64,000 bases of DNA. It comes from an uncultured Dehalococcoidia bacterium (GTDB lineage: Bacteria; Chloroflexota; Dehalococcoidia; SZUA-161). How positions within the stretch are numbered: the first letter of the stretch is position 1; every line of letters begins with the position of its first letter. Location of the stretch: contig CAZGDV010000001.1 in NCBI GenBank assembly GCA_964524995.1, forward strand, positions 6,221-70,220, read 5' to 3'. Shown piece by piece: positions 11,568 through 62,897 of this stretch. A program made the translations under genes and the position numbers. Under the pieces are notes generated by a model. The model made no database searches, was not told the origin of the DNA, and saw nothing but the letters and a program-made list of their open reading frames with translations.

Positions 11568-11774
11568 GGCTAGCCACCCCCGGAGAAAACCACCACTCAC
11601 CAACCTTCGTGCTCGCCGAAATGCCAGCTCAACATTCGGTGCACGGCGACGAAGTAAGTTACATCAACCCATACTTGTAAGGGAATTCGCCCCGCTGGTC
11701 AAGAGCCACGCATGATTCCCGACCGGTGCGAGAGGCCAGGACAGCTGGTACGTGTGGACCGGCGGGCCCGCCCC

Positions 11775-26196: not shown

Positions 26197-26937
26197 CTAA
26201 GCTTCCGAGGAACCGATGCGCCCATTCGACCCTTGCGTGCTCTCAAGCTTCGATTGCTCGTCTCGATGGAGCTTCTCTCCTATCGCGTCGATGATGTACT
26301 GCATTCCGATTTGGAGCGGCAAGCCCTTGCTATGCGACGTTCCATTATAGGCGAGGGAGTACCTGTCCAAGACTTCATCTATGACCTCGATGATGCAGTC
26401 AAGCTCGGCCACCTTGACAGGGTACTGCTTGGCAACTTCGATTCCGCTCAGCACGTGGTCTATGTCGACATGGGCTAGTGCCTTGTTTCTCCACACCCTC
26501 AAGTTCTTCGCAGGCAGTCTCGCAAGCAGCTGCCTATCCTTGGCAACGCTTCGCAAAGTCACCCGCATAGGGACTCGTGGCGTGCCACCATTCCGATAGG
26601 CAGGATGCTGGCGCATTCGCCTCTGGAAGGCTCGGCTCTGAAACGCGGGGCGGTTCTCGTCGACGAAGTCGAGTAACCACCACATACTTAAGTCCTTCTT
26701 CCCCTTGGACAACAACCTCGTCAGCCGCATAACTGCCTGAAGGAAGTGTCCATACCATGTCAACTCAAAGAAGGCAGGTGCCGTGTTCAATTCGTGTGCG
26801 TGGGAAGCTCTCGCACTATGCAGGAACTTGCATATGGACCAATGCCAGTAGGCGTTGTTGAGTTCCTCTCTCAGGTGGTCATGGCACTTGACGAACTTGG
26901 CTTCTTCAGCCGTAGGCTCGTAGTCATGTTCAACCAT
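26197..26937 (-). CDS. Abi_2 (AbiD/AbiF-like) / HEPN-motif protein, putative abortive-infection effector
   Basis: 246 aa; Trp/Lys-rich; contains RNKALAH (R-x5-H HEPN-type motif of the RNxxAH kind found in Abi_2 proteins); located in the lower-GC island next to mazEF. Confidence 0.5.
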   Translation of the reverse strand: MVEHDYEPTAEEAKFVKCHDHLREELNNAYWHWSICKFLHSARASHAHELNTAPAFFELTWYGHFLQAVMRLTRLLSKGKKDLSMWWLLDFVDENRPAFQSRAFQRRMRQHPAYRNGGTPRVPMRVTLRSVAKDRQLLARLPAKNLRVWRNKALAHVDIDHVLSGIEVAKQYPVKVAELDCIIEVIDEVLDRYSLAYNGTSHSKGLPLQIGMQYIIDAIGEKLHRDEQSKLESTQGSNGRIGSSEA

Positions 26938-27196: not shown

Positions 27197-27439
27197 ATGA
27201 GAACCAGGGTCCAGAAATGGGGCAACAGCCTGGCTTTGCGCATACCTAAGTCCTTCGCCAACGAAGTGGGGCTTCAAAGGGAAACATCTGTCGAGGTCTC
27301 GCTAGATGACGGGAAGCTTGTCATCACTCCGGTGTCAGAACCAAAGCTGACTCTGGAACAACTCCTGGCAGAGGTTACCGAAGACAATCTGCATCACGAA
27401 GTCGATACCGGCACCGCCGTAGGAAATGAAGCATGGTAA
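27197..27439 (+). CDS. mazE: MazE/PemI (AbrB/SpoVT-fold) antitoxin
   Basis: ATG at 27197 with GGAGG RBS; MRTRVQKWGNSLALRIPKSFANEVGL is the classic MazE/PemI swapped-hairpin N-terminus; the track's longer 27140 start is rejected. Confidence 0.8.
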   Translation: MRTRVQKWGNSLALRIPKSFANEVGLQRETSVEVSLDDGKLVITPVSEPKLTLEQLLAEVTEDNLHHEVDTGTAVGNEAW

Positions 27440-27780
27440 GTCCGCGCGCTTACGTTCCCCAGCGTGGGGATGTGGTTTGGATTACGCTGAATCCACAGGC
27501 GGGGCACGAGCAAGCCGGACGCCGCCCGGCTGTGGTGCTTTCACCAACAAGCTATAACGGCAAGACCGGACTTGCTATCCTTTGCCCGATAACCAGCCAG
27601 GTCAAGGGCTACCCGTTCGAGGTGCTCCTTCCCGAGGGGTTGCCGGTGAACGGGGCAATCCTCTCAGACCAGGTCAAGAGCTTAGACTGGGGCGCGCGAA
27701 AGTCAGAGTTGACATGCAAGTTACCGGATGAAGTCATGTCCGAGGTGCTTGAAAAGCTGGGTACGCTGCTATCGCAATGA
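27433..27780 (+). CDS. mazF: MazF/PemK-family endoribonuclease toxin
   Basis: 115 aa; PQRGDVVWITLNPQAGHEQAGRRPAVVLS...LAILCPITSQVKGYPFEV matches the PemK/MazF fold; 7-nt overlap with mazE. Confidence 0.85.
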   Translation: MVSPRAYVPQRGDVVWITLNPQAGHEQAGRRPAVVLSPTSYNGKTGLAILCPITSQVKGYPFEVLLPEGLPVNGAILSDQVKSLDWGARKSELTCKLPDEVMSEVLEKLGTLLSQ

Positions 27781-28034: not shown

Positions 28035-28106
28035 TGGCAGCGGGAGGATTCGAACCTCCAACCCCGGGCTTATGAGTCCCATGCTCTGCCTTTGAGCTAC
28101 GCTGCC
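28035..28106 (-). tRNA. tRNA-Met (anticodon CAT; could alternatively be tRNA-Ile2/lysidine type), no encoded CCA
   Basis: Reverse strand folds as acceptor GGCAGCG/CGCUGCC, D-arm GCUC..GAGC, anticodon loop CUCAUAA, T-arm GGAGG-UUCGAAU-CCUCC, discriminator A. G1-C72 rules out a bacterial initiator. Confidence 0.8.
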
Positions 28107-41062: not shown

Positions 41063-43516
41063 ATGGCTACCGTTGACCAGAGGACCCGGAGAGCACAGCA
41101 GATAGCTGACAAGGTCAGATTCAGGACCATGATGGGCCAACGCACCGGCCGCGTCGAGGAGCAGGAGAAGCTCGGCAAGATTTCGGATATCAGGCCCACC
41201 CTCAGGCTGGACGTGGAACGCGCAAGACACGTAACTCAGGCCTACAAGGACTACGAGGGCGAGCCTATATCCATCAGGCGCGCCAGGGCCATGGAGCGCC
41301 ACCTCGACAATATGACCATATTCATCTCAGACTACGATCTAATCGCTGGCAGCTCCTCACGATCACCAGACCACGTTATCTCTTACCCCGAACTCTACTC
41401 CCGCTGGGTCGACAAGGCCATCGAGATGGGCTACAAGGATATGGTCGACGACAACGAGCGCGAGGAGCTCCACGAGATAAACAAGTACTGGTTCCCCAGG
41501 TCTATCCAGGGCAAGGAAAGACAGTACCTCGCCGAGGCCGACAAGCCCTACTGGTCATACATGAACCAGGGCGTCTTCGTCTGGGTCCACGGCGCTCACT
41601 CCGGCCAGGTCCCCAACTACGAGAGGGTATTCCAGGTCGGACTAAAGGGCATCCTCCAGGAGACCAGGGACAAGCTAGCCGAGGTCACCCAGGACAGGGG
41701 CTTTATCAGGGACAACCCGCAGGAGTTCCTCAGGGCCAAGGCATTCCTCGAAGCTGTCATCATCTCTATCGAGGCAGCCCTTCGCTGGGCCCACAGGTTC
41801 TCCGACCTCGCTAAGGCCATGGCCGACGACGAGTCAGACCCCAAGAGGAAGAAGGAGTTGGAGCGCATCTCAGACGCCTGCGCCTGGGTCCCCGAAAACC
41901 CGCCCCGTTCCTTCTTCGAGGCCGTACAGGGCTGGTTCCTCATGTTCCTCCTCGTAAGGGTCCTCGATATCCAGACCAGCGGCATCGGCGACAGGCTCGA
42001 CTACCTGTTCGGCCCCTTCTACAAGAAGGACAAGGAAGCAGGCAAGATCACCCCCGATGAGGCTCGGGAGATCATGGAGTTCACTTTCCTCAAGTTCACC
42101 GACCTCTCGGACTTCAACGCGCCCATCATGGGCAGCGGTGCCCATACTACACCTCGCTACACCACCATCGGCGGCCAAGACAGGCTCGGCAGGGATATCA
42201 CCAACGAGCTCACCTACATCATCATGGACGCCGTCAAGGGTTTGGGTCTCGTAGAGCCCATGATGGTTGTCAGGCTCCACAAGAACACGCCCGACGAGTT
42301 CCTCTACAAGTTCACCGACATCCTCAGAGAGGACGCAGGCCACTATGGCATATTCAACGACGAGTTCATGGTACCCTGGCTCGTGAGCAAGGGTATGCCC
42401 GTCGAGGACGCCAGGAACTGGTGCGTCGAGGGCTGCATGCGCTGGGCCGTCGTCGGCAAGCCCATGGGCCACAGAGGCATCGCAGGCGTAGGCTTCGCAC
42501 TCCCTAAGTGCCTCGAACTCGCACTCACCGGCGGCAAGGACGACAAGTTCTTCGGCGGCAAGCAGGTAGGACCCGAAACCCAGGATCCCAAGACATTCAA
42601 ATCCATCGACGAGGTCATTCAGGCCTACCTCAAGCAGGTCGAGTTCTTCGCCGAGAAGCTCGTCATCTTCTCCAACCTCACAGACGCTGTTGAGGACGAG
42701 TGGCTGCCCCAGCCCTTCAACTCAGCACTCCTCGACGGCTGCATTGAGAACGCCAAGGACGTCAGGCATATCCACTACTGGCACAAGACCAACATGCAGC
42801 CCGTCGGTCAGACCACCGTCGTCAACGCACTCGTCGCCATGAAGAAGCTCATCTTCGAGGACAAGAAGGTCACCATCGACCAGCTCCTGCAGGCGCTCAA
42901 GGACAACTGGGAGGGCCACGAGGAGTTGCGCCAGATGTTCCTCGACGCTCCCAAGTTCGGCAACGACGACGACTACGTTGACCTCTTCGCCAGGGACGTA
43001 CATATCAAGACCTGCCAGGCGTTCCACCAGTTCAAGACTATCTTCGGCTTCAACGTCCAGTCAGACGGCTCCGGCAGCGCCTCATACTTCTCCTTCTCCG
43101 GCCTCACAGGAGCCACACCTGACGGCAGAAAGGACAGGGAGGTCTTCTCCGACGGCACCGTCTCCCCTGCTCCGGGCACGGATGTCAAGGGGCCAACGGC
43201 GGTCCTCAAGTCTGTAGCCAAGATCGACCCGCTTCTGACCTTCAACCACCTGTTCAACCAGAGGTGGATGCCCGAGTTCCTCGAGGGTGACAACAGGTCC
43301 AAGTTCGTCGCGTACCTCCGAACCTTCACCGACCTGGGCATACACCACATCCAGGGCAACGTGATCGACGACGCGGTACTCAGGGACGCGCAGGAGCATC
43401 CCGAGAACTACGAGCGCCTGGTGGTAAGAATCGCGGGCTTCAGCGCCTATTTCGTGGACATGCACAAAGAGGTCCAGGACCAGGTTATCGCCAGAACCAA
43501 GCAAAGACTCGGCTAG
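41063..43516 (+). CDS. glycyl-radical enzyme of the pyruvate-formate-lyase superfamily, substrate unknown
   Basis: 817 aa; C-terminal glycyl-radical motif RLVVRIAGFSAYFVDMHKEVQDQVIARTKQ (compare PFL [24 protein letters not shown]); mid-protein Cys loop NWCVEGCM with the C-V-E triad seen in the glycerol-dehydratase/CutC/HypD/X-succinate-synthase branch. Confidence 0.9.
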   Translation: MATVDQRTRRAQQIADKVRFRTMMGQRTGRVEEQEKLGKISDIRPTLRLDVERARHVTQAYKDYEGEPISIRRARAMERHLDNMTIFISDYDLIAGSSSRSPDHVISYPELYSRWVDKAIEMGYKDMVDDNEREELHEINKYWFPRSIQGKERQYLAEADKPYWSYMNQGVFVWVHGAHSGQVPNYERVFQVGLKGILQETRDKLAEVTQDRGFIRDNPQEFLRAKAFLEAVIISIEAALRWAHRFSDLAKAMADDESDPKRKKELERISDACAWVPENPPRSFFEAVQGWFLMFLLVRVLDIQTSGIGDRLDYLFGPFYKKDKEAGKITPDEAREIMEFTFLKFTDLSDFNAPIMGSGAHTTPRYTTIGGQDRLGRDITNELTYIIMDAVKGLGLVEPMMVVRLHKNTPDEFLYKFTDILREDAGHYGIFNDEFMVPWLVSKGMPVEDARNWCVEGCMRWAVVGKPMGHRGIAGVGFALPKCLELALTGGKDDKFFGGKQVGPETQDPKTFKSIDEVIQAYLKQVEFFAEKLVIFSNLTDAVEDEWLPQPFNSALLDGCIENAKDVRHIHYWHKTNMQPVGQTTVVNALVAMKKLIFEDKKVTIDQLLQALKDNWEGHEELRQMFLDAPKFGNDDDYVDLFARDVHIKTCQAFHQFKTIFGFNVQSDGSGSASYFSFSGLTGATPDGRKDREVFSDGTVSPAPGTDVKGPTAVLKSVAKIDPLLTFNHLFNQRWMPEFLEGDNRSKFVAYLRTFTDLGIHHIQGNVIDDAVLRDAQEHPENYERLVVRIAGFSAYFVDMHKEVQDQVIARTKQRLG

Positions 43517-43554
43517 CAACTGGCGAACACCGCAGCCATTCTGAGCAGACGCGC

Positions 43555-43594
43555 AAGGGCGGCAACTCTCCCACGAGGACTGTCGCCCTTTTCC
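43555..43594 (+). terminator. candidate intrinsic terminator after the glycyl-radical enzyme gene
   Basis: AAGGGCGGCA ... UGUCGCCCUU hairpin followed by TTTTCC; the 5' arm is also part of a 15-nt long-range inverted repeat (see findings). Confidence 0.5.
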
Positions 43595-43670
43595 TATTAT
43601 CAGCTTGTCAGGTTAGCTCGAAGGCCCTTGCGCGTCTGCCATCTCCTCTTTCCGGAGTGAGCACAGAGGC

Positions 43671-43699
43671 TTGACAGGCCTCGATTTCTGTGTTAAAAG
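43671..43699 (+). promoter_or_regulatory. possible promoter (TTGACA-17-TAAAAG) with ~350-nt leader to the surface-protein gene
   Basis: TTGACA 43671-43676, 17-nt spacer, TAAAAG 43694-43699. Confidence 0.3.
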
Positions 43700-44057
43700 T
43701 CACCTGCGAGACCGTAGGCCAAGACATACTTGGATGAGGTCTTTCCCCGCCGAGCCGCTGTTGAATGCGGGTGTGATATGCCCCAGACCCAAGTGTCGTG
43801 AAAGCTAACGGATGCCCCCCCATCCGCCCACGGAGCTTGAACGCCGCTGCTGGAGAATACCACAGCCACATTTCCTGTCTCATGGGAACCGACAGCCGCG
43901 CCTGAAACCGTGATTCTGTCGTCGCGGCAGGAAGGAGGTGCAAGCCAAAGCAACGGTTGCACCGAGGTTTGCTCCACCAATGCAGCAACATCCGAACCAC
44001 GCGTTACGTGCACACTCGTCAAACAGACAGGGAATGCAAATCGGGAGGGGGACTCAA

Positions 44058-45023
44058 ATGAAGAAGCTGGTAACTATCTTGATCGTCGTTGCGCTGGCGG
44101 CCACGGGTCTGTTCATAGCCGCAGCGCCAGCCGCAGCTGACTCGCTTCTCGACTCAGTTGAAGTCGGAACCCCATCCAGCGAGTCCACTCACGGCATAGT
44201 AGAGCAGCCCACGGGTGACTGGGGGCCGATAGAGACCGCGACGCACGGCGGCTCCTACGGGGACATTGACAACGGCGGAGCTCCAGATTACACGTCTGGA
44301 GACAACGCGTGCCGCTGCATATGGGGGTATGACGAGGACCCCACTGGGAACATTGGACAGGATGCCACCTTCACGATGAGTACGGGCTCCGGCATGACCG
44401 CCACCCGCCTCGTGATCCGAGTCTTGGATGGAGGCAGCGACGACTCCTTCGACCTCAAGGTGAATGGTTCAACCGAGCTGTCATATACAGACCAGTATAC
44501 TGCTGAGACTTGGGTAACCCATGACATCGACATCTCCTCCGGGGCCTATACGGGTACTCTCAACATAAGCCTGACAGCTACTGCCGCAGCCGGTCCATAC
44601 TTCAATGACTATGGACAGGTAGCTGTTGACTGGGCCGAGCTCTATGGCGAGGAGTCACCTCCACCGACACCGGAAGGCAACGAGACCGGTGGTTGCTTCA
44701 TCGCGAGTGCGGCCTATGGCTCATACTTCGAACCCCAGGTTGACACGCTCCGGTCATTCAGAGACGGGTTCCTGCAAACAGATGCGGCCGGAACCGGCAT
44801 TGTGTCGGCTTATTATGCGCTCAGCCCACCGATAGCCGACTTCATTGACGCCAATCCAGTTCTCAAGGCACCGGTAAGGGCCGCTCTGGCACCGGCGGTT
44901 GCGCTGAGTGACACAGCCGTAGCCACCAGCACGTCTGCGAAGGCGGCAGTAGCCGGCGCAGCAGCCCTTGCTGCTCTCGCCGCGGCAGCGTGGCTCCGGA
45001 GGCGCATGGTTCAGAGCCGTTAA
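44058..45023 (+). CDS. secreted protein with conserved ~110-aa C-terminal module (GGCFIASAAYGS...LRSFRDGFL, Ala-rich helix, RRR tail)
   Basis: ATG 44058 with GGGAGGGGG RBS; signal peptide MKKLVTILIVVALAATGLFIAAAPAAA; C-terminal module near-identical to that of the next gene and ending in a hydrophobic helix plus WLRRRM. Confidence 0.7.
   Translation: MKKLVTILIVVALAATGLFIAAAPAAADSLLDSVEVGTPSSESTHGIVEQPTGDWGPIETATHGGSYGDIDNGGAPDYTSGDNACRCIWGYDEDPTGNIGQDATFTMSTGSGMTATRLVIRVLDGGSDDSFDLKVNGSTELSYTDQYTAETWVTHDIDISSGAYTGTLNISLTATAAAGPYFNDYGQVAVDWAELYGEESPPPTPEGNETGGCFIASAAYGSYFEPQVDTLRSFRDGFLQTDAAGTGIVSAYYALSPPIADFIDANPVLKAPVRAALAPAVALSDTAVATSTSAKAAVAGAAALAALAAAAWLRRRMVQSR
44687..44851 (+). repeat. 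copy 1 of ~165-bp near-identical direct repeat (encodes the shared C-terminal module)
   Basis: About 95 nt identical then scattered mismatches versus 46621-46785 (constant offset 1934 nt). Confidence 0.7.
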
Positions 45024-45126
45024 CTGGCTCTCATTACTCAACGACTGAATGGCTGGTATCGGCTGGCGGCAGTGTTGTCGCGGCGCTACCGCCAGCCCAA
45101 ACCAAGCCTACGGAAGGGAGACCGCG

Positions 45127-46974
45127 ATGAGACACATCACGGCCAAAGCTATAGTGTGCTTGGCTATAATCGCTTCTGTCGTACCAGTGGTGACTGCGGG
45201 CGGTCTCTCACTAGCGGTTGCTGGGGCTACCACCACTGCAGGATCAATGGCAGTATCAGTACCCGGCGGCCCTGACTATGCACCGGCGAATGTACAGCTA
45301 GCGAAGATCGACCCGGGACTGACCTCGCCGAGCGGCGACTATCGATGGTTGGATGTCGCAGACAACGAGTACGCCGCATCCTTCCACTCCACCTACGACT
45401 ACTCGCAGGCCAGCGTTCAGGTTACCTATGAGACCCAGGGCACATCGCTACAGGGTACACTCGTCGCGACCAATCTCAAGCCCAACTTCGCATATCAACT
45501 CAAGCTTACAGGTACTCCCGACACACAAGACAACGAGAGGATTGGCCTGTCCGGAAGATGGTGGGAAGAGACCTGGGATGGCTCCCAGTGGAGCAATGGG
45601 CATAACCTGAACAACAAGGGCGACGGCTCGTCGCCGAATCCGAACGATGATCTGTACTTCAGCCGAAAGGATGTCCAGGAGTCATCCAGCCCAACGGGGA
45701 AGCTATATCGATACACCGGCTACATGCCGATTGATTACTTCATCACCAACGAGTCCGGCAGTGCCTCCCTGAGCTTCGAGGCCGACAGTTGCTACCATGT
45801 CCTCTGGAAGACCTCGCAGCGCGCGCCCAATGGGAACGATGGGCCTCTCAAGATGTGGGCCTTCGATCCCGATCCGCTATCGACCGCATATGATTTCGAC
45901 TACCCCGAGTCAAGCGCAACCATCTTCGGTGAGTGGGAACGGCTTCCCGTTGGTGGGGTCTATCTCCGACCGGGTAGCTACAGTTGCATGATCACGCTTA
46001 CCGAGGAATCGTTCCACGGCAACGGCCTCGCCGGAGGATGGGCCAGCGCCATGGGTGCCACGATATCATTCGACATTGAGCCAACCTACACCCTGTCCGT
46101 CAGCGCATCTCCCGTGGGCAGCGGGACCACCTCCCCAAGTCCCGGCGCCCACGGCTGCGCGCCCAACCAGGTTTTCCTTCTGGAGGCATATCCAGCCTCC
46201 GGTTACGAGTTCTCCAGTTGGGGCGGCAATGTCGCCCAGCCGTATTCCAGTTCGACACGCATCACGATGACAGCGGACGAAACAGTCACAGCGTACTTCC
46301 AGCCCGCCGGAACCACCGACCCGCCGGATGCCCCCTCCAACCTGGCCGCCACTGCCGAAGCCGACGGCACGGTCACGCTCTCTTGGCAGGACAACTCCAA
46401 TGACGAACTCGGATTCGCTATTGATCGCAAGACAGCAACGGGATACTTCCACGAAATCGATCGAGTTGCGGCCAACACAACTACCTATCACGATCAGGGT
46501 GTTACAGGCGGACGAACCTATGTCTACAGGGTGAAAGCCTGGAAGTACGTGGAAGGCCCCCTAGGTCCCACTGAAGTCTCTTCATCATCCAACCAGGTAT
46601 CGGTTACTACCTCATCGGATGGCGGTTGCTTCATCGCGAGTGCGGCCTATGGCTCATACTTCGAACCCCAGGTTGACACGCTCCGGTCATTCAGAGACGG
46701 GTTCCTCCAGACAGATGCGGCTGGAACCGGCATTGTGTCGGCTTACTATGAAATCAGCCCACCCATAGCCGACTTCATCGACGCACACCCGTCACTCAAA
46801 CCAATAGTCAAAGCTGCGCTGGCCCCTGCTGTAGTAGTCAGCGACACAGCTGTCGACGGTAGCATAGCTCTCAAAGCAGTGATAGGTAGCGTAGCATTGT
46901 TTGTAGCGTTTGTCTCCACGGTTTGGGTCCGCAGGCGTATCGCCTTGAGTAAACAGCCTCACCGGTTCTCCTGA
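45127..46974 (+). CDS. secreted multidomain surface protein (InlB-B-repeat-like domain, fibronectin type III domain) with the same C-terminal module
   Basis: ATG 45127 with GGAAGGGAG RBS; signal peptide MRHITAKAIVCLAIIASVVPVVTAGG. YTLSVSASPVGSGT..GYEFSSWGGNV..VTAYF bacterial Ig-like repeat; FN3 (PDAPSNLAATAEADGTVTLSWQDN...YVYRVKAW). C-terminal GGCFIASAAYGS... module + helix + WVRRRI. Confidence 0.75.
   Translation: MRHITAKAIVCLAIIASVVPVVTAGGLSLAVAGATTTAGSMAVSVPGGPDYAPANVQLAKIDPGLTSPSGDYRWLDVADNEYAASFHSTYDYSQASVQVTYETQGTSLQGTLVATNLKPNFAYQLKLTGTPDTQDNERIGLSGRWWEETWDGSQWSNGHNLNNKGDGSSPNPNDDLYFSRKDVQESSSPTGKLYRYTGYMPIDYFITNESGSASLSFEADSCYHVLWKTSQRAPNGNDGPLKMWAFDPDPLSTAYDFDYPESSATIFGEWERLPVGGVYLRPGSYSCMITLTEESFHGNGLAGGWASAMGATISFDIEPTYTLSVSASPVGSGTTSPSPGAHGCAPNQVFLLEAYPASGYEFSSWGGNVAQPYSSSTRITMTADETVTAYFQPAGTTDPPDAPSNLAATAEADGTVTLSWQDNSNDELGFAIDRKTATGYFHEIDRVAANTTTYHDQGVTGGRTYVYRVKAWKYVEGPLGPTEVSSSSNQVSVTTSSDGGCFIASAAYGSYFEPQVDTLRSFRDGFLQTDAAGTGIVSAYYEISPPIADFIDAHPSLKPIVKAALAPAVVVSDTAVDGSIALKAVIGSVALFVAFVSTVWVRRRIALSKQPHRFS
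46621..46785 (+). repeat. copy 2 of ~165-bp near-identical direct repeat
   Basis: See copy 1 at 44687-44851. Confidence 0.7.
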
Positions 46975-46994
46975 GAACCTCGATCTCCCGGTTG

Positions 46995-47030
46995 GCGGCG
47001 GCACCGGCGTTGGTGCCGCCGCTGTGTTTG
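46995..47030 (+). terminator. intrinsic terminator after the surface-protein pair
   Basis: GCGGCGGCACC-GGCGUU-GGUGCCGCCGC 11-bp GC hairpin followed by UGUGUUUGG. Confidence 0.55.
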
Positions 47031-47104
47031 GACATGACACCAGCCCTCGATAACGGTATGGCGTTGTCCGATGCCAGCCAGTGTGTTAACATCTAATCAG
47101 GATC

Positions 47105-55358: not shown

Positions 55359-55815
55359 CGATCATCCCTGGATCGGCGCGCCACAGGGGAAGCGACAATA
55401 CCACCGTTCGTAGGCAGATGCTGTTGACCTGGGGTCTCTGATTCACGCATGTCAGCAGTAGCTAGGACCGGGGTCTAAAAAATCTGAAACGTGGCCCGTG
55501 TGTCCGTGCGCCAGGCCAGATTGACTACCACCCCGGCATACGTCCACGAGCCTGTTGGAGTATGATACCATGAGTGCATCTGAGTCCGCAATACACCTTG
55601 GCGGTAACATCACACACGTTCGCTGACCTTGACAAATTCAGACAAATCGTGTAAGAAAGAAGGCACCCTCCACATCGCAGCCGACACAACCCGCCGCTTC
55701 CGCCGCAGAATATCAACGCGCCACCGAAACAGCTATGAGCTACCCTGCGAGCATTCTGTGGGCCGGGGGAGTGTAGTTGGGTTATGGCCGAACCTACACC
55801 AGGATCCAAGCCACT

Positions 55816-56886
55816 ATGAGCCACGCTAACAGTAAGCGCAAGAAGGAGCATCTGGACGTATTCCTGAATGGCAGCGCACACGTCGATGGTGCAAGCACCG
55901 GGCTGGAGTGCTACCGTTTTGTACATCGTGCGCTACCGGAGATCAACCTGGCTGATGTCGACGTCTCGACCAACCTGTTTGGCAAGCAGTTGGGCGCTCC
56001 CATACTGATATCCCCAATGGTCGGTGGGATAGGGGAGGCCGCGAGGGTCAACAGGAACTTAGCGACGGCCGCCCAGGCCCTCGGCTTGGCCATGGGAGTC
56101 GGCTCGCAGCGGTGTGCGATCGACGACCCCGATGCGGTATCCACATACCACGTCCGCGATGTGGCACCCGACATTCTCCTGTTCGCAAACCTGGGTGCCG
56201 TACAGCTCAACTACGGATACAGTGTGTCGGAATGCCAGCGCGCCGTGGACATGATAGACGCGAACGGCCTCATGCTGCATCTCAATCCGTTGCAGGAGGC
56301 CCTTCAGCATGACGGCAACACGGATTTCTCCGGTCTGCTGTCCAAGATCGAACTCGTTTGCCGCAAGCTGAGCGTGCCCGTGATCGTCAAGGAGGTCGGT
56401 TTCGGCATCTCCGAGGATGTCTCCAGATTGCTAGCCAGCGCAGGCGTCGCCGCCATCGACGTCGCTGGAGCCGGCGGCACCTCCTGGAGCGAAGCGGAGA
56501 GGCTCAGAGCCAGCAACAACGGTATCACCGGCGTCGCGGCGGCCTTTGCGGATTGGGGTATACCCACAGCCGATTCCATCATCATGGCGAGGCAGGGTGC
56601 ACCGGATTCCGTGGTCATCGCCAGTGGTGGCGTCTACTCGGGGATCGACATAGCCAAGGCTATGGCCCTAGGCGCTGATGTAGCAGGCATGGCAGCGCCC
56701 CTGCTCAAATTGGCGCACAGCTCCACAGAAGCTGTTGTGCTAGCGCTCCGGAACCTAATACAGGAACTCAAGATCACTATGTTCTGCATTGGCGCCGCCA
56801 ACATCGATGAACTCAAGTCAGCGCCACTCGTGGCTGACTCACCCGGAGGCGGCACACATCGTTCGGAGTGGGAAGGGTGCGCATGA
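55816..56886 (+). CDS. fni: type 2 (FMN-dependent) isopentenyl-diphosphate delta-isomerase
   Basis: ATG 55816 gives MSHANSKRKKEHLDV.. (IDI-2 N-terminus); FMN/TIM-barrel motifs ILISPMVGG, GVGSQR, ASGGVYSGIDIAKAMALGAD. Confidence 0.85.
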   Translation: MSHANSKRKKEHLDVFLNGSAHVDGASTGLECYRFVHRALPEINLADVDVSTNLFGKQLGAPILISPMVGGIGEAARVNRNLATAAQALGLAMGVGSQRCAIDDPDAVSTYHVRDVAPDILLFANLGAVQLNYGYSVSECQRAVDMIDANGLMLHLNPLQEALQHDGNTDFSGLLSKIELVCRKLSVPVIVKEVGFGISEDVSRLLASAGVAAIDVAGAGGTSWSEAERLRASNNGITGVAAAFADWGIPTADSIIMARQGAPDSVVIASGGVYSGIDIAKAMALGADVAGMAAPLLKLAHSSTEAVVLALRNLIQELKITMFCIGAANIDELKSAPLVADSPGGGTHRSEWEGCA

Positions 56887-57917
56887 GCGGTCGTACTCTT
56901 GTTGCGCTGTGGAAGGCGAATGTGCCTCACTGGATCTGGATCGGCGCTCCGGCGTGGATCGGCGGTCTTCTCATGGGGCTGGAGGGCCAGACCGTGGAAT
57001 GGCCTCATGTCCTGCTATTCGTTCTGGCAGTGTTGACCATACAGGCCGCAGCCGAGTTCGCCAACACCTACACCGACAGACACGAGGACCAGCTATATGG
57101 GCCAACCAACACCCTGGTCACCGGCGAGCTCGATGCCGGTCTGGCCAAGAAGGCTCTCATCGCGGAGAATGTGGTTGCAGCCGCGCTGCTGATCGCCCTC
57201 CTTGCCATCACACTCAACTACGCCCTGGTGCTGGTAATGCTCGCTGGCTGGTTCTTCAGTGTAGCGTACTCGGTCCCTCCGCTCAGGTTGAAGGAGACCT
57301 TGTTGGCGCCGCTATCCCACGCCATAGCCTTCGCACTTCTGCCGGTAGCAGGATGGCTCATCGTGCAGCCGTCACTCACCGCCCAGAACGGGTTCATATT
57401 GGGTTTCGCCGGCGTCCTCTTCCTCCACAGCTTCGCCTTGGGCATCACCCTGAAGTTCAGGAAGACCCTGCTTGCTCTGACCTCCGGCCTGGTGCGCCTG
57501 GAGCCGGGTGCCAGCCTGTACAACATGGCTACCGTCGGCTTCAACCTCCGGTTCAGAAACGCCATGACACTGGAGGAGGTAACAGGCCTGGGGGCTTTCG
57601 TACTGGTGCCGATTCTGTGGAGTCTGGGCGTTTTCAACACAACTCTGTCGGTCGGGTTGCTGGTGCTTCCGCTGACCTGTACAGCCCTGGCGGTCATCTT
57701 GAGGGAGAAGGACCCCGTGGCGAACAGCTCCAGGTACAAGGTTCTCATGACGCTCGCCTGGGGTCTCATAGTCGTGCTGCTATTCGGCGTTGGAATGGCC
57801 AACCACGTGCACTACGGCTATGCCCTGATGGCTTCAATCGTCGTGCTTGCCGGTTTCCCTCTACTCGTGCGAATCGTCCATCCCTGGGGCTCCAAGTCCC
57901 TTAGTAGCCGGTGCTGA
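56883..57917 (+). CDS. UbiA-superfamily prenyltransferase
   Basis: Start ATG 56883 overlaps the fni stop (ATGA; translational coupling); 8-9 TM helices; first Asp-rich motif NTYTDRHEDQ (NxxxDxxxD). Confidence 0.75.
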   Translation: MSGRTLVALWKANVPHWIWIGAPAWIGGLLMGLEGQTVEWPHVLLFVLAVLTIQAAAEFANTYTDRHEDQLYGPTNTLVTGELDAGLAKKALIAENVVAAALLIALLAITLNYALVLVMLAGWFFSVAYSVPPLRLKETLLAPLSHAIAFALLPVAGWLIVQPSLTAQNGFILGFAGVLFLHSFALGITLKFRKTLLALTSGLVRLEPGASLYNMATVGFNLRFRNAMTLEEVTGLGAFVLVPILWSLGVFNTTLSVGLLVLPLTCTALAVILREKDPVANSSRYKVLMTLAWGLIVVLLFGVGMANHVHYGYALMASIVVLAGFPLLVRIVHPWGSKSLSSRC

Positions 57918-57963
57918 TGGACTCATAGTGTATCTGAAATGGAGCAGCTGCAGTCGAAAAGCT

Positions 57964-59064
57964 ATGAACGATGAATCCCTAAGACCGAGGCCAACTGAAC
58001 ACCGGGCGACTCACCGTCTGGATGGCCCGATCACCATCGACAGCGTGGAGCGTTACGCACACGGCCTGAGATGGAAGCTGGGGATCAGTACAAACCCTTG
58101 CGTCCAAGCGAGAAGAAACACACGATGCGTCTACTGTGGCTTCCGTAACCACCACAACCCCGTTCCACCCGACGATGTCGGCCACGTCCTCCGCAGAGCG
58201 CTCGAGAGCCGTGATCTGCGCGCAGTGCGTAGACTGGAGCTGTACGTGTCGGGCAGCTTCTTCGACGAGCATGAGGTGTCCGAGCAGTCCACGGATTTGA
58301 TCGCTCAACTTATCGCGGGCAGCACCGTGAATGAAGTCGTACTGGAATCAAGGCCGGAGTTCGTCACTGAAGACCGACTAAGGGCACTCGCACAGCGCTT
58401 GGACCCCAGCCGGGTAATAGTCGCCGTCGGCGTGGAGACAATGGACGACGAGCTTCGCTCCAGGCTGTCCAAGAACTTCAGTACAGACGATGTAGTCAGA
58501 AGTATCGAGGCCGTTGCCCAGGCCGGCATGGGATTCCAGGCCTACCTGCTCCTGAACCCGCCCCTCATCAACGACGACCGGTCTGCGATAGTCGACGTGT
58601 TGACCAGCTCCAGGAGAATCCTGCGTCTCACGTCGAGGCTTCAGTGCAAGACCATCCTGGCTGTCCAACCCTACTTCGTCGCCAAGGAGTCGGCGATAGC
58701 AGAGCGCTTGTCCGCGGAGCCGCCTCCCAGGCCTCCATGGCTGTACACTATTGCGCTGGTTCTGGGGCTGTTGGATGCGATCAGGGGAGAGTGGGTACCG
58801 CCTTTCCAAATCATCCTCGGTAATGAAGTAGACAACGTCGATACCCTGCGCATTCCGGCGAACTACGCCGCCGATGGTGGTGTGTGCGATTGCAGCGATG
58901 GAATCCGGCAACTACTGCGAGAAGTAAATATCTCGCGTGATACAATGCGCGAGCGAGTCCAGCAAGTGCTGGCGGCACCCTGCGAGTGCAGGGAGGCATG
59001 GGAACAGCAGATCGTTGCGGGTGTGTGTGAGTTTGCTTCCACTATACCCGACACGCCCTGGTAG
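57964..59064 (+). CDS. radical SAM-like protein with unusual CX8CX2C spacing
   Basis: ATG 57964 (avoids overlap with the UbiA gene); NPCVQARRNTRCVYCGF cluster motif; downstream LYVSGSFFDE / VGVETMDDELR segments consistent with a radical-SAM TIM barrel; Cys-rich C-terminus (CDCSDG, CECREAWEQQIVAGVCEF). Confidence 0.6.
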   Translation: MNDESLRPRPTEHRATHRLDGPITIDSVERYAHGLRWKLGISTNPCVQARRNTRCVYCGFRNHHNPVPPDDVGHVLRRALESRDLRAVRRLELYVSGSFFDEHEVSEQSTDLIAQLIAGSTVNEVVLESRPEFVTEDRLRALAQRLDPSRVIVAVGVETMDDELRSRLSKNFSTDDVVRSIEAVAQAGMGFQAYLLLNPPLINDDRSAIVDVLTSSRRILRLTSRLQCKTILAVQPYFVAKESAIAERLSAEPPPRPPWLYTIALVLGLLDAIRGEWVPPFQIILGNEVDNVDTLRIPANYAADGGVCDCSDGIRQLLREVNISRDTMRERVQQVLAAPCECREAWEQQIVAGVCEFASTIPDTPW

Positions 59065-59131
59065 CCAACGAATCCACCGGCATGCTTCTGGTTAGGCGGC
59101 CAGCTGCCAGCGTGGACCGAGAGGAGCCCTA

Positions 59132-60307
59132 ATGTCGCAGCGTTATCTCAACCTGAAAGCATACCACCAGTCGGATCTCTTCCATCCCGTCACCAAGGAC
59201 GAGATAGGTTTCGATAGACTATCCAACGTGCTCCCGCCATCGCTGGCCAGTCTGGAGTTGTCCAAGGACAAGCAGGTTGATATCCCCGAGACCGTCCGCA
59301 GCATCTACGCCAAGTACCGGCCCACTCCGCTCGTCAGAGCCAAAGGCTTCGAGAAAGCCATCGGCACGACATGTGAGGTCTATCTGAAGAACGAAGGCGC
59401 AGCCCCCACCGGCAACCACAAGGCGAACAGCGCCTACCTGATCGCCTACCTGTGTCGTAGCGACGGTGCGAAGTACATAGCCACGGAGACCACAGGCAAC
59501 TGGGGCATTGCCCTGGCAATGGCCGGCCGCGAATTGGGCATCAAGGTGGTCTGTTTCCTGGACGAGGAGAGTCACCTGGAGAGACCGGACCGCAAGCCGC
59601 TGATGGAGGGTCTGGGGGCCGAAGTGGTCGTCGTCAGCCCGCCGGACGACGACAAGCTGAGAGACCCGCTCACGATATCGGCTAATGCCGCCATAGACTT
59701 CGTCCGAAGCTCCAAGGACGCATACTACATCTTCGGCAGCGTCTACAATTACTTCATACTCCCCCAGTCGGTCGTCGGTCTGGAGATCAAGAGCCAGCTG
59801 GCTGAGTCGGGCAGATACCCGGACATAGTTGTAGGGACGTGCGGAGGCGGTGCCAGCCTGCTCGGAACAGCAGCCGTGTTCATCGCCGACATCCTGGACG
59901 AGGGCAGGCCAACCAGGATCGTCTCGGCCGAGGCAGAGACCTGCCCGATCCTGTCGGAGGGCAAAGTGGGGCTGTACTCGGTGGACGACAGGCAGCACTT
60001 CCCTCTGCTCAGAACCTACGGCATCGAGGGGCTCAAGGACGGCGACTACATAGGCGGGCTCGGGTCGACTGTACTAGCCAGCTCTGTATCGTTCTTCCAC
60101 TCGGAGGGCATGATCGAGGTGAACCGGTTCAACGCCCAGGAAGCCATGAGAGCGGCCAAGCTTCTGCACGAGAGCGAGGGGATGCTGGTTGCGCTCGAGA
60201 CCGGCTATACCGTGGCGGCGATAATGAAGCAGGCTCAGGAGAACGACAACAAGGTGATCGTAGCTAACGTCAGTTCCGGCGAGACAGACAAGCACTTCTA
60301 TGAATAG
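59132..60307 (+). CDS. PLP-dependent enzyme of the tryptophan-synthase-beta (fold-type II) superfamily, TrpB-like
   Basis: 391 aa; KNEGAAPTGNHKANSA (PLP-lysine motif, compare TrpB K.E..NPTGSHKIN) and ATETTGNWGIALAMAG (compare TrpB TGAGQHG); Gly-rich GTCGGGASLLG PLP-phosphate loop. Confidence 0.75.
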   Translation: MSQRYLNLKAYHQSDLFHPVTKDEIGFDRLSNVLPPSLASLELSKDKQVDIPETVRSIYAKYRPTPLVRAKGFEKAIGTTCEVYLKNEGAAPTGNHKANSAYLIAYLCRSDGAKYIATETTGNWGIALAMAGRELGIKVVCFLDEESHLERPDRKPLMEGLGAEVVVVSPPDDDKLRDPLTISANAAIDFVRSSKDAYYIFGSVYNYFILPQSVVGLEIKSQLAESGRYPDIVVGTCGGGASLLGTAAVFIADILDEGRPTRIVSAEAETCPILSEGKVGLYSVDDRQHFPLLRTYGIEGLKDGDYIGGLGSTVLASSVSFFHSEGMIEVNRFNAQEAMRAAKLLHESEGMLVALETGYTVAAIMKQAQENDNKVIVANVSSGETDKHFYE

Positions 60308-60316
60308 GCCATCATC

Positions 60317-61492
60317 ATGACGACTCCTTACGAAGACTATCTGCAGCAACTCGAACTCGACTTCGAAAGGCCCGACTGTCTCTCGAACAAGGTGAAGCTG
60401 TGCTCCTATCTGGTCTGCTGCGGGGCCACGGTGGAACTGGGCGGCTACGAACGCGACGACAAAGACCTGAGAACAGGCAACTCCGGCCTGCAACTCCTGG
60501 TCGGCCATCCGCAGCTGCGAGCTCTCATCCCCACAGCACACATGAACGACGAGAACCCGGTAATGATCAGGGGCAATGCGGGCGGGCAAGCGGTGCTAGA
60601 GTATGCTGGTATGTCATTCTTCCCCGTCGAAGTGCTCCCCGAGCAGAATACAGGCAACACCACCATCTCCGCCGAGTTCGACACCCTGATCACCGCCATA
60701 CCCAACGAGCCCTACGGTGTACGTAGCTGCCACTTCCACAAGCTGCAGAGTCCCTGCGCCTTCTGCGTACTCACCGAGAAGAGCATGCCCCTGGGCCCGC
60801 CCGACCTCGTCGCTGCCTACGACAAGGTCACAGCCGGATCGGGACGTGCCCCCCAGGTCCTGCTGACCGGCGGTACCGAGCCCAGCGCCGACCGAGGTCT
60901 CGCCAAGTATCTTCCATATGTGGTGGAACTACGGCGCGAGTTCCCCGATGCCCGAGTCGCCATCGAGGCCTCTCCCCCAGAGGACCCCTCGTCCCTCGAT
61001 CCACTGATCGAAGCAGGCATGGACACCTTCGCCGCGAATATCGAGTTCTACTCCGAGCAGACCAGGCGCGACCTGCTTCCGGCGAAATCGAGCATACCCC
61101 TCCACGCATACAGCAACGCCCTCAGCTACTGCAACAGGGCTGGCGTCAGGACATTCTCAGCAGTCATAGCCGGTCCGGAGGGCGATGCCGACACAATCCG
61201 CGCCGTCGAGTTCCTCGCGGACGCCGGAACTCCGACCAACTTCCTGTGCCTGCGCCCCTTCCCTGGTGCCGTACTTGCTGACAGCCCCAGGGTCAACCCC
61301 TCGTGGTACCTGCGCATGACATACGAGGCCAACGCCGTCATGGCACGCCACGGCCTGCTCGACGACCTTGCTGGGACGGCCGGGTGTGGCTCCTGCGGGG
61401 CCTGCTCCATGGAGATGAATCTATACCGGCTCGCTCAGCATCAGGATACCGCCAACGTGGCGGAGGAATGCCCTTGGGTAGCCACATCCTGA
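60317..61492 (+). CDS. radical SAM-like protein, second CX8CX2C member, with C-terminal CxxCxxC cluster
   Basis: 391 aa; RSCHFHKLQSPCAFCVL then LLTGGTEP (GGEP-type SAM-binding glycine motif), C-terminal GTAGCGSCGACS. Confidence 0.5.
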   Translation: MTTPYEDYLQQLELDFERPDCLSNKVKLCSYLVCCGATVELGGYERDDKDLRTGNSGLQLLVGHPQLRALIPTAHMNDENPVMIRGNAGGQAVLEYAGMSFFPVEVLPEQNTGNTTISAEFDTLITAIPNEPYGVRSCHFHKLQSPCAFCVLTEKSMPLGPPDLVAAYDKVTAGSGRAPQVLLTGGTEPSADRGLAKYLPYVVELRREFPDARVAIEASPPEDPSSLDPLIEAGMDTFAANIEFYSEQTRRDLLPAKSSIPLHAYSNALSYCNRAGVRTFSAVIAGPEGDADTIRAVEFLADAGTPTNFLCLRPFPGAVLADSPRVNPSWYLRMTYEANAVMARHGLLDDLAGTAGCGSCGACSMEMNLYRLAQHQDTANVAEECPWVATS

Positions 61493-61562
61493 TTGTGTGC
61501 TTTGATCGTATCACTTCGTGCTAATCCGGTCTCCCGCCACGGCGACATTCCGGAGTCAGAAG

Positions 61563-62897
61563 ATGAAGACCCTGGTCCTTGTGAATCCAGCACATCAGCT
61601 CAAGCCGAATCTGGCAACCATTCTCAGGCTGCCCTCGGCGAGCCTGGCCTACCTGGCTGCCCTTACACCGGCAGACTGGGAGATCAAGCTCATCGACGAG
61701 AACACCGAACCCCTGACATACGACGGTGCCGACCTGGTAGCCATCACGTCATACACGTGTAACGCTCCGAGAGGCTACGAGATATCTCAAGAGTACAGGC
61801 GTCGTGGTGTCAAGACCGTCATGGGCGGCGTCCACGTCTCACTCATGTCCTCCGAGGCTTCCGAATATGTGGATTCGGTGGCGATTGGAGAGGGTGAGTC
61901 AATCTGGGCACAGGTGATATCGGACTTCGAAAACGGTTCCCTCAAGCCCGTCTACCAGGGTGACCGCCTGTCCCTTGACAGCCTGCCCAGGCCCAACAGG
62001 ACCATCTACGGCAAGCGCTATCGTCTGGCCTCAGTCGAGACATCGCGCGGCTGCCCTAATGACTGCGAGTTCTGCTCCGTCACAACCTTCAACGGCCATA
62101 CCTACAGGCAGAGGCCCGTGGACGAAGTCCTCGCCGAACTCGAGGGCCTGACCGGCAAGTATTTCTTTTTCTCCGACGACAACATACTCGGCTACGGCCA
62201 CAAAGCAGAAGACAGGGCAATTCGCCTTTTCCGTGGCATGATCGACCGTGGGCTCAAGAAGCGATGGGCCGCGTATGTCGGCATCGACTTCGTCAACAAC
62301 CCCGAGGTAGTCGAGTACGCCAGGAAGGCCGGTTGCCTCGGGGTCTTCATCGGCTTCGAGTCCATCGATGAGGAGTCGCTGAAGGGCATGCACAAGGTGA
62401 GGAACCTGCGCATGGGTGTGGCCAGATACAAAGACGTCGTCAAGATACTGCATGGTCACGGAATAGGCGTGTTGGGCTCCTTCGTTCTCGGCAGCGACAC
62501 CGACGACAAGGACGTATTCGACAGGACCACCGAATTCGTTCTCGATTCGAGGATGGACGCCGCACAGTTCTCGATCCTGAACCCTTTCCCGGGAACGAGG
62601 CTATACGACCGGCTCATGCGCGAAGGCAGGCTCCTGCGAACGGACTACCCCTCTGACTGGAAGCACTATGACTTCACGGAGGCCCTTTTCCAACCCAGGA
62701 ACATGACTCCGGAGGAGCTGGAGGAGGGTGTGGCACGCATGTACAAGAACACCACGTCCCGCGCCACATCCGCGAAACGAGCACTTGTCTCCGCTATACA
62801 GACGCGCAGTCCCTTCGGTGCCGTCGTTGCATATCTCGGAAACCGGGGTGCGGGCGACTTATGGGAGAAGAGGTACGCGGGCAAGATCGGGTCCTGA
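61563..62897 (+). CDS. cobalamin-binding class B radical SAM enzyme (likely C-methyltransferase or cyclase type)
   Basis: ATG 61563 with GGAG RBS gives MKTLVLVNPA.. B12-binding Rossmann-like N-domain; canonical radical-SAM SRGCPNDCEFC; overall HpnP/BchE/GenK-like architecture. Confidence 0.8.
   Translation: MKTLVLVNPAHQLKPNLATILRLPSASLAYLAALTPADWEIKLIDENTEPLTYDGADLVAITSYTCNAPRGYEISQEYRRRGVKTVMGGVHVSLMSSEASEYVDSVAIGEGESIWAQVISDFENGSLKPVYQGDRLSLDSLPRPNRTIYGKRYRLASVETSRGCPNDCEFCSVTTFNGHTYRQRPVDEVLAELEGLTGKYFFFSDDNILGYGHKAEDRAIRLFRGMIDRGLKKRWAAYVGIDFVNNPEVVEYARKAGCLGVFIGFESIDEESLKGMHKVRNLRMGVARYKDVVKILHGHGIGVLGSFVLGSDTDDKDVFDRTTEFVLDSRMDAAQFSILNPFPGTRLYDRLMREGRLLRTDYPSDWKHYDFTEALFQPRNMTPEELEEGVARMYKNTTSRATSAKRALVSAIQTRSPFGAVVAYLGNRGAGDLWEKRYAGKIGS

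Follow-up and report, generated by a model that had tools for sequence, protein, structure and literature searches.

A 64-kb window of genomic DNA from an uncultured Dehalococcoidia bacterium (the window being the whole stretch of 64,000 nucleotides analyzed) contains two adjacent genes, here called A and B, whose products share a C-terminal module of the CFI-box-CTERM family. A and B are further members of this existing, named family, which, as far as the tools used here show, is apparently unpublished and functionally uncharacterized. On balance, the evidence favors the view that the conserved core of the module is a folded, autonomous membrane-proximal anchoring or assembly domain and not a classical short sorting signal that is cleaved from its protein.

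The shared module comprises 111 aa in A and 117 aa in B. The first 43 residues, counted from GGCF, are identical, and identity across the whole module is 71%; upstream of the module no similarity between A and B was found by blastp or blastn. These two copies are the only CFI modules within the window. A GGCFIASAAYGS box is present in both proteins at the start of the domain. The CFI-box core domain is encoded at 44694..44900 (+) in gene A, corresponding to residues 213-281, and at 46627..46833 (+) in gene B, for which the AlphaFold2 core model has four helices; each starts at the codon for an invariant Cys and aligns with positions 1-69 of the 69 positions of the family model. Some 72 conserved residues separate the Cys box from a hydrophobic helix, which in A is an Ala/Leu-rich transmembrane helix (44943-44996, +; mean Kyte-Doolittle (KD) hydropathy 1.69) and in B is encoded at 46876-46929 (+; KD mean 2.03; helix 88-115 in the full-module model). 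An RRR cluster directly follows at 44997-45005 (+) in A and 46930-46938 (+) in B, with helix and RRR together occupying module alignment positions 87-107 in A. The helix-plus-basic ends read ...AAALAALAAAAWLRRR in A and ...VALFVAFVSTVWVRRR in B, with 5 and 11 residues, respectively, following the RRR. The initial annotation of this DNA had described a shared C-terminal module of ~110 aa on two adjacent genes that encode secreted proteins with unrelated bodies, and these points were borne out: both open reading frames (ORFs) exist, both N-termini are signal-peptide-like, with basic residues followed by a hydrophobic stretch, and the passenger domains are unrelated. The spacer of ~40 aa that it placed between box and helix is, however, the conserved stretch of ~72 residues.

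The family assignment is based upon NF041770 (NCBIfam, CFI-box-CTERM), a model of 69 positions that covers the helical core only, without the transmembrane helix or RRR. At a curated cut-off of 40 bits, it matched A with 86.7 bits and B with 88.1 bits over model positions 1-69. No other NCBIfam sorting-signal model matched A or B at E<=1, and no Pfam match was found on the module. The module had previously been left without a named class, with a hidden Markov model search against sorting domains proposed as a check, and had been considered possibly lineage-specific; that search supplied the name, and the family proved to be widespread. An exhaustive hmmsearch of 1.84 billion cluster representatives (clusters at 50% identity) yielded 20,627 matches at E<=1e-3, 6,767 of them at 1e-10, and the loci ranged from 28% to 60% GC, so the module is neither confined to these two proteins nor specific to one lineage. 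With >20,000 clusters at 50% identity, CFI-box-CTERM is among the largest protein-tail families without an assigned function. The choice of search mattered: a word-indexed homologue search with one module gave no matches, while the exhaustive profile search and an alignment query did find relatives, and a genome-contig scan with the whole of protein B returned mostly FN3 matches, with the CFI box in 0 of 69 loci. PADLOC and PHROGs gave no match on the module and therefore no link to a defence system.

Among the best 150 matches, in proteins of 133 to ~2,000 aa, the median distance between the end of the module and the C-terminus was 7 residues. Ten positions were invariant across 152 aligned modules (C4, F5, R23, R26, D27, Y43, S47, P48, A51 and L68), and conservation was high through ~75 residues, followed by a short polar loop, the hydrophobic helix and the Arg cluster. 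The residue preceding the Cys was variable (G, R, A, P, N, Q, E or V) and mostly Gly. A signal-peptide-like N-terminus was detected with a hydrophobicity heuristic in 87 of 111 full-length relatives, as well as in A and B. Passengers were varied and of kinds usual for surface proteins, and included leucine-rich repeats, Ig-like domains, beta-propellers, M6 metalloproteases, FN3, InlB repeats, molybdopterin oxidoreductases and NosD-like beta-helices. NCBI already applies the name CFI-box-CTERM to proteins from Dehalococcoidia metagenome-assembled genomes (MAGs). One orthologous group of CFI genes, with a NosD-like beta-helix plus FN3 passenger, was observed at eight loci (L105, L118, L120, L125, L126, L128, L135 and L144), where the gene 3' of the CFI gene has a weak outer-membrane beta-barrel match; this weak neighbor suggests that the family also occurs in diderm bacteria.

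Structure prediction indicated that the residues between the box and the transmembrane helix form a domain. An AlphaFold2 model of the core only (82 aa, built with a 122-sequence alignment) had a mean predicted local distance difference test (pLDDT) score of 91.8 and a predicted TM-score (pTM) of 0.78. It placed helices at residues 6-11 (the CFI box), 17-32, 34-56 and 58-81, with one-residue turns between, consistent with a predicted compact domain of four helices for the 69-80-aa core. Neither sequence profile nor fold comparison found relatives of the core in the PDB, and the predicted core is apparently a new fold. The up-down topology of the modelled helices would put the Cys at the end of the domain farthest from the membrane, a placement that would argue against processing by an intramembrane enzyme.

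Comparison with known C-terminal sorting signals bears directly on this reading. In the list drawn up by Haft (bioRxiv 10.1101/2023.06.07.544157), tripartite C-terminal sorting signals have eight attributes. The CFI tail resembles the signals of the LPXTG/sortase, PEP-CTERM/exosortase, PGF-CTERM/archaeosortase A and GlyGly-CTERM/rhombosortase systems in its C-terminal position, invariant motif, helix followed by an Arg cluster, signal peptides, unrelated passengers and choice of anchor. Its tripartite layout is also like that of the MYXO-, JDVT-, Synerg- and CGP-CTERM signals of myxosortase-type CPBP proteases, and it shares a Cys in the motif with the MYXO/CGP group. Choice of anchor is illustrated by gene B, whose N-domain has tblastn homologues in a Planctomycetota MAG (65% identity) and a Lentisphaerales MAG (57% identity; loci L001 and L002) that have other C-terminal ends, either a dockerin-like segment or a choice-of-anchor D domain with a short GC...TM...RR tail that contains a Cys. 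In contrast to tripartite signals, which span ~25-40 residues with the motif directly before the helix, the CFI module has ~110 residues, with a predicted-folded domain of 70-80 aa in between; it also has variants without helix or signal peptide, and neither the window nor 80 metagenome neighborhoods yielded a cognate enzyme. The sorting or anchoring logic proposed in the initial annotation thus stands in part: the C-terminal position, the hydrophobic helix plus RRR and the unrelated passengers agree with it, but the module is not built like the classical signals of sortases, exosortases or archaeosortases, since the motif lies ~80 residues upstream of the helix and within a domain that is predicted to fold.

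A cleaved sorting signal was considered in this light. An unlinked enzyme would recognize the CFI box, modify the Cys (e.g. with a lipid) and/or cleave nearby, the helix and RRR would hold the precursor after Sec export, and the passenger would be left on the envelope via its new moiety. The suffix -CTERM in the curated name, the presence of attributes 1, 3-7 and 8 of Haft's list in the module, and the Gly-rich linker immediately before the Cys speak for such a mechanism. Furthermore, four other orphan signals with an invariant Cys have been assigned to CPBP/Rce1-like intramembrane proteases, with lipidation of the Cys proposed (bioRxiv 10.1101/2023.06.07.544157). We nevertheless judge it unlikely for the CFI tail. 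Haft's attribute of small size with the motif beside the helix is not seen, since the module is ~110 aa long and ~72 conserved, predicted-folded residues intervene; the motif lies ~80 residues from the transmembrane helix, and the stretch between them is as conserved as the motif itself. In the model, turns of a single residue would impose an up-down bundle that holds the Cys far from the membrane. None of the LPXTG, PEP-CTERM, PGF-CTERM, GlyGly-CTERM or MYXO-CTERM motifs was present in the pre-helix sequence (SDTAVATSTSAK in A, SDTAVDGSIALK in B), and no sortase, exosortase, rhomboid or CPBP gene was found within the window. No enzyme family recurred near the module in the 80 metagenome loci, where only passenger repeats and housekeeping synteny were shared; the lack of a candidate enzyme in the window and in these loci is a weak argument, because unlinked enzymes are normal in one-to-many sorting systems.

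Cores that lack the transmembrane helix, the signal peptide, or both also speak against a cleaved signal and for the preferred reading of a folded anchoring or assembly domain. Among complete modules from the metagenome loci, 76 of 89 contained a transmembrane helix, usually with 3-5 basic residues after it, and 13 of 89 (~15%) lacked both the helix and the Arg tail. Secreted CFI proteins without the helix, in which the module ends after the third core helix, were found at L076 (1128-2024), L078 (4846-7068), L097 (860-1663) and L111 (10379-11152). The tails at L076, L078 and L097 are alike, forming an acidic amphipathic helix ('...VRELLVDPIV...W'), while that at L111 differs ('...LRAVTRMALAPIIWFCSRITAQFSP') and is likewise without a transmembrane helix. 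The NF041770 scores at L076 and L078, the pair that was scanned, were 90-92 bits. All four proteins have a signal peptide, and all four are encoded by the second gene after an anchored CFI gene; at L078, the passengers of the anchored and the helix-less genes are paralogous. CFI cores without a signal peptide were found in IMG/VR at L157 (4350-5243), L160 (4656-5237), L162 (1564-2409), L164 (4632-5222), L163 (4356-5246) and L158 (4187-4726). These carriers have a core scoring 76-95 bits at the C-terminus and no hydrophobic segment, on contigs of 28% to 60% GC, and their last core helix is cationic and amphipathic. Their N-terminal parts are of cytoplasmic type, comprising a Zn-ribbon plus TPR at four loci, GYF_2 plus Zn-ribbons at one and an HNH endonuclease at one. 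The core thus occurs on exported proteins both with and without the membrane helix, and also, without a helix, on proteins expected to stay inside the cell, and must therefore be more than a peptide recognized by a sorting enzyme in the membrane.

Some CFI genes carry an interrupted module. An in-frame TAG was observed at one alignment column in four CFI modules from three related bacterial loci (L112 2038-4281 and 4584-6749; L115 7799-10249; L116 8009-10249), L116 being bacterial and carrying RecA. These modules read '...NTSPA*KTAIAGLLALV...WAARRR', and the family consensus at the position of the TAG is E or Q. A transmembrane helix is still readable 3' of the TAG, and the tails differ from copy to copy through a frameshift, a lost stop or divergence. 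The TAG looks like an inherited truncation that would remove the anchor; alternatively, low-level read-through may yield both secreted and anchored forms. Genome-wide recoding of TAG was rejected, as reading TAG as sense lengthened ORFs at these loci no more than in controls, and a further 4-6 long ORFs there terminate at TAG.

The invariant Cys also raised the question of self-processing, in which the Cys would attack its peptide bond to the residue before it, mostly Gly, through an N-to-S acyl shift and thereby release or transfer the passenger. Known analogues are the G-C-F site of Hedgehog and the Ser of the phage intramolecular-chaperone (S74) domains, which have a Ser-Lys dyad and drive trimerization of beta-helical fibers. 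The Cys lies exactly at the N-terminal boundary of the CFI domain after a flexible linker, and the domain is strictly C-terminal and combines with any passenger, inside or outside the cell. Like the phage Peptidase S74 chaperone domain of K1F endosialidase, the CFI core is strictly C-terminal and largely helical with a conserved catalytic-type position taken by Cys as its first residue, and one weak structural resemblance was recorded: the best-shaped match in BFVD was a phage 'intramolecular chaperone auto-processing domain' (query TM-score 0.59, rmsd 3.4, 71 columns). This match was not significant (E 6.8, probability 0.21), and when the CFI profile was compared by hhalign with the chaperone domain of K1F endosialidase, the probability was 0.6%. 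Unlike S74, with its Ser-Lys dyad, CFI showed no sequence or profile similarity to that family, its predicted fold is all-helical, unlike Hint domains, and the residue before the Cys varies. We know of no cleavage for CFI, and consider self-processing very improbable. Membership in the S74 auto-processing family was not supported, given the lack of a Pfam hit on the module, the hhalign value and the sole, non-significant fold hit.

Several observations weigh against the preferred reading of a folded anchoring or assembly domain. The fold comes from a single AlphaFold2 run, with the remaining four core models at pLDDT 62.6 to 80.4, and the full-module AlphaFold2 model was weaker, with a pLDDT of 73.5 that fell to near 55 in the CFI box. 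The helix-less fraction was drawn from small, biased samples (80 metagenome loci and 8 IMG/VR loci), and the single HNH fusion may be an artefact of a homing endonuclease gene inserted beside conserved CFI-coding DNA. An invariant Cys as first residue after a Gly-rich linker is not explained by a purely structural role. Taken whole, the module also displays most of the attributes on Haft's list: it is C-terminal, starts with an invariant motif and has a transmembrane helix and an Arg cluster, and its proteins have signal peptides, unrelated passengers and homologues with other anchors. In addition, full-text literature searches with the family name and the motif strings found no paper.

A working model of the folded anchoring domain can be outlined, in which the topology, the permanence of the anchor, the docking or oligomerization role and the fold, the last from AlphaFold2 alone, are inferred. 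A and B would be exported via an N-terminal Sec-type signal peptide and retained by the C-terminal helix as type I membrane proteins that face outward from the cytoplasmic membrane, and RRR would be the Arg cluster that stops transfer on the cytoplasmic side. The module would consist, in order, of a flexible linker, a four-helix domain of ~80 aa, a loop of 5-8 residues, the transmembrane helix and the Arg cluster. The domain would start with the invariant Cys, its first short helix being the CFIA(T/S)AAYG box, and the other three helices would form an up-down stalk standing directly on the membrane, the last of them joined to the transmembrane helix through the 5-8 residues. The passenger would then be attached by the flexible linker at the far end of the stalk, where the Cys is predicted to sit. 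This presumed topology, a hydrophobic helix followed by a basic cluster as stop-transfer, is like that of simple type I C-terminal anchors with a juxtamembrane stalk; unlike ordinary anchors of this type, CFI has a conserved domain in >20,000 protein clusters with an invariant Cys/R/R-D/Y/S-P signature. The conserved surface formed by R23, R26, D27, Y43/Y44, K61 and R65 is probably a docking site for the membrane surface, for further CFI cores, or for both, and such docking would explain why helix-less partners are encoded beside anchored proteins and why cytoplasmic carriers exist.

A broader proposal can be made more tentatively, and as a whole we regard it as speculative. The CFI core may be a new fold that serves as a general membrane-interface or assembly domain and allows protein display independent of sortase. 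Anchored proteins might hold helix-less partners by core-core contacts at the surface of Dehalococcoidia, the cytoplasmic Zn-ribbon/TPR/GYF carriers might be tethered to the inner membrane face by their cationic last helix, and the Cys might take part in chemistry, for instance by bridging a metal or in an acyl shift. As far as is known, members of the class Dehalococcoidia such as Dehalococcoides lack a peptidoglycan wall.

The CFI tail appears to be the common means of attaching surface enzymes and adhesins in Dehalococcoidia and their relatives, bacteria that abound in the subsurface and in marine settings. How the surface proteome of these uncultured organisms is to be predicted depends on whether the tail is a folded anchor that stays in place, a module for docking or a signal that is cleaved off, and so does the question of whether a processing enzyme is still to be discovered. 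The possibilities are narrowed here by the confident model of a helical core, the helix-less partners beside anchored genes, the cytoplasmic-type carriers and gene conversion at the level of the module. For the window itself, the outcome is mostly a correct annotation.

At the DNA level, the two modules form a direct repeat of 300 nt (44688-44987 versus 46621-46920; 76% identity). Within it, a putative gene-conversion tract was delimited by a blastn match of 93.9% identity over 164 nt with 10 mismatches, copy 1 at 44688..44851 (+) and copy 2 at 46621..46784 (+). The longest identical run is 83 nt (44691-44773), and 3 mismatches fall within the first 96 nt. Synonymous divergence (dS) between the A and B modules was 0.147 over codons 1-32 and 0.268 over codons 1-55, yet reached 3.8 (saturated) over codons 56-106, where nonsynonymous divergence (dN) was 0.38. 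Since dS changes within one module from low values (5' half) to saturation (3' half), the 5' halves are best read, from this pattern of substitutions, as homogenized by recent gene conversion between adjacent paralogous modules. An alternative account of the near-identity is strong purifying selection on the protein motif alone, or else that the module was recently duplicated as a whole, and the first 43 residues are indeed among the most conserved positions of the family. Protein-level selection cannot, however, hold synonymous sites, with a dS of 0.15-0.27 in the tract and saturation just downstream, and a single whole-module duplication would give an even dS. Furthermore, identical codons were used for the same amino acids at 74% of positions between A and B against a between-locus median of 38%, and we therefore hold selection or duplication to be highly unlikely. 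The initial annotation had offered conversion or selection as explanations, of which conversion is retained because the pattern goes beyond what selection alone produces; its ~165 nt of near-identity was confirmed as the 164-nt match, while the identity it reported over the first ~95 nt extends over 83 nt only.

Tandem arrangement of CFI genes is not limited to A and B, as 14 of 81 loci carried two modules. Other tandem pairs of the transmembrane type were 77-89% identical over the first 70 codons, compared with a between-locus median of 57%; the 95th percentile of between-locus pairs was 84.8%, so that the excess in tandem pairs is a tendency and the separation is not clean. This high percentile is probably due to close orthologues in the sample. 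Pairs of an anchored and a helix-less gene were 54-56% identical over the same codons at L076, L078 and L097, and 68% identical at L111. Two long proteins, P0003 (2009 aa) and P0122 (1142 aa), contain two complete CFI modules each, the first module being followed by a new start resembling a signal peptide or lipoprotein; each is two consecutive CFI genes read as a single ORF, again a tandem arrangement.

Gene A (44058..45023 including the stop codon, +) is an ORF for a 321-aa CFI-box-CTERM protein, and was called identically in 4 metagenome assemblies. A Shine-Dalgarno-like GGGAGGGGG was read from the sequence at 44043..44051 (+), 6 nt before the ATG at 44058. The product consists of a signal peptide, an uncharacterized passenger and the CFI module, and no Pfam domains were found in it. 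Its signal-peptide-like N-terminus, MKKLVTILIVVALAATGLFIAAAPAAAD (44058..44141, +; cleavage site approximate), has two Lys followed by an 11-aa window with a mean KD of 3.26. Gene B (45127..46974 including the stop codon, +) is an ORF for a 615-aa CFI-box-CTERM protein, and lies 103 nt downstream on the same strand. The longest ORF begins at 45049, but a start at 45127 is backed by independent gene calls, also of 615 aa, and by a Shine-Dalgarno-like sequence, the ribosome-binding site GGAAGGGAG at 45112..45120 (+), and the exact protein sequence was found in a protein collection. Its parts are, in order, a signal peptide, an N-terminal passenger domain without a Pfam family (45292..46026, +; tblastn homologues at L001 and L002), a divergent InlB B-repeat (46087..46305, +; Pfam PF18998, 38.5 bits), a fibronectin type III domain (46327..46542, +; Pfam PF00041, 27.9 bits) and the CFI module.

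A consensus scan found no terminator-like stem-loop between A and B, and the pair may therefore be co-transcribed. The same scan placed a weak terminator-like stem-loop 3' of gene B (47005..47021, +), which is weak evidence given 5 sites against 2.4 expected. Directly 5' of gene A is a gene for a pyruvate-formate-lyase-like glycyl radical enzyme (41063-43516, +), and the 540-nt non-coding gap between them (43517-44057) contained no recognized RNA family. An assembly chimera at A and B was ruled out, since the DNA of 43500-47100 is 100% identical across four independent assemblies from different samples. The named nearest relatives of the SecA encoded in the window all belong to Dehalococcoidia or Chloroflexota, at 70-77% identity.

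Other features of the window were recorded in passing. A gene with a HEPN_AbiU2 domain adjoins a MazE/PemK toxin-antitoxin pair (26197-26937, -, and 27197-27780, +) near a tRNA gene (28035-28106, -), a region that may be a small defence or mobile islet. A 1,387-aa protein encoded at 17080-21264 (-) is a fusion of a BcrAD/BadFG-type ATPase with DUF2229. At 9849-11603 (-), beside a flavodoxin/ferredoxin gene, a 572-aa protein is encoded that matches multihaem cytochromes faintly. Finally, genes for a flavin mononucleotide (FMN)-dependent dehydrogenase, a UbiA prenyltransferase, three radical S-adenosylmethionine (SAM) proteins, one of them B12-binding, and a pyridoxal phosphate (PLP) enzyme lie on the same strand at 55777-62897 (+), in what looks like an uncharacterized biosynthetic operon.

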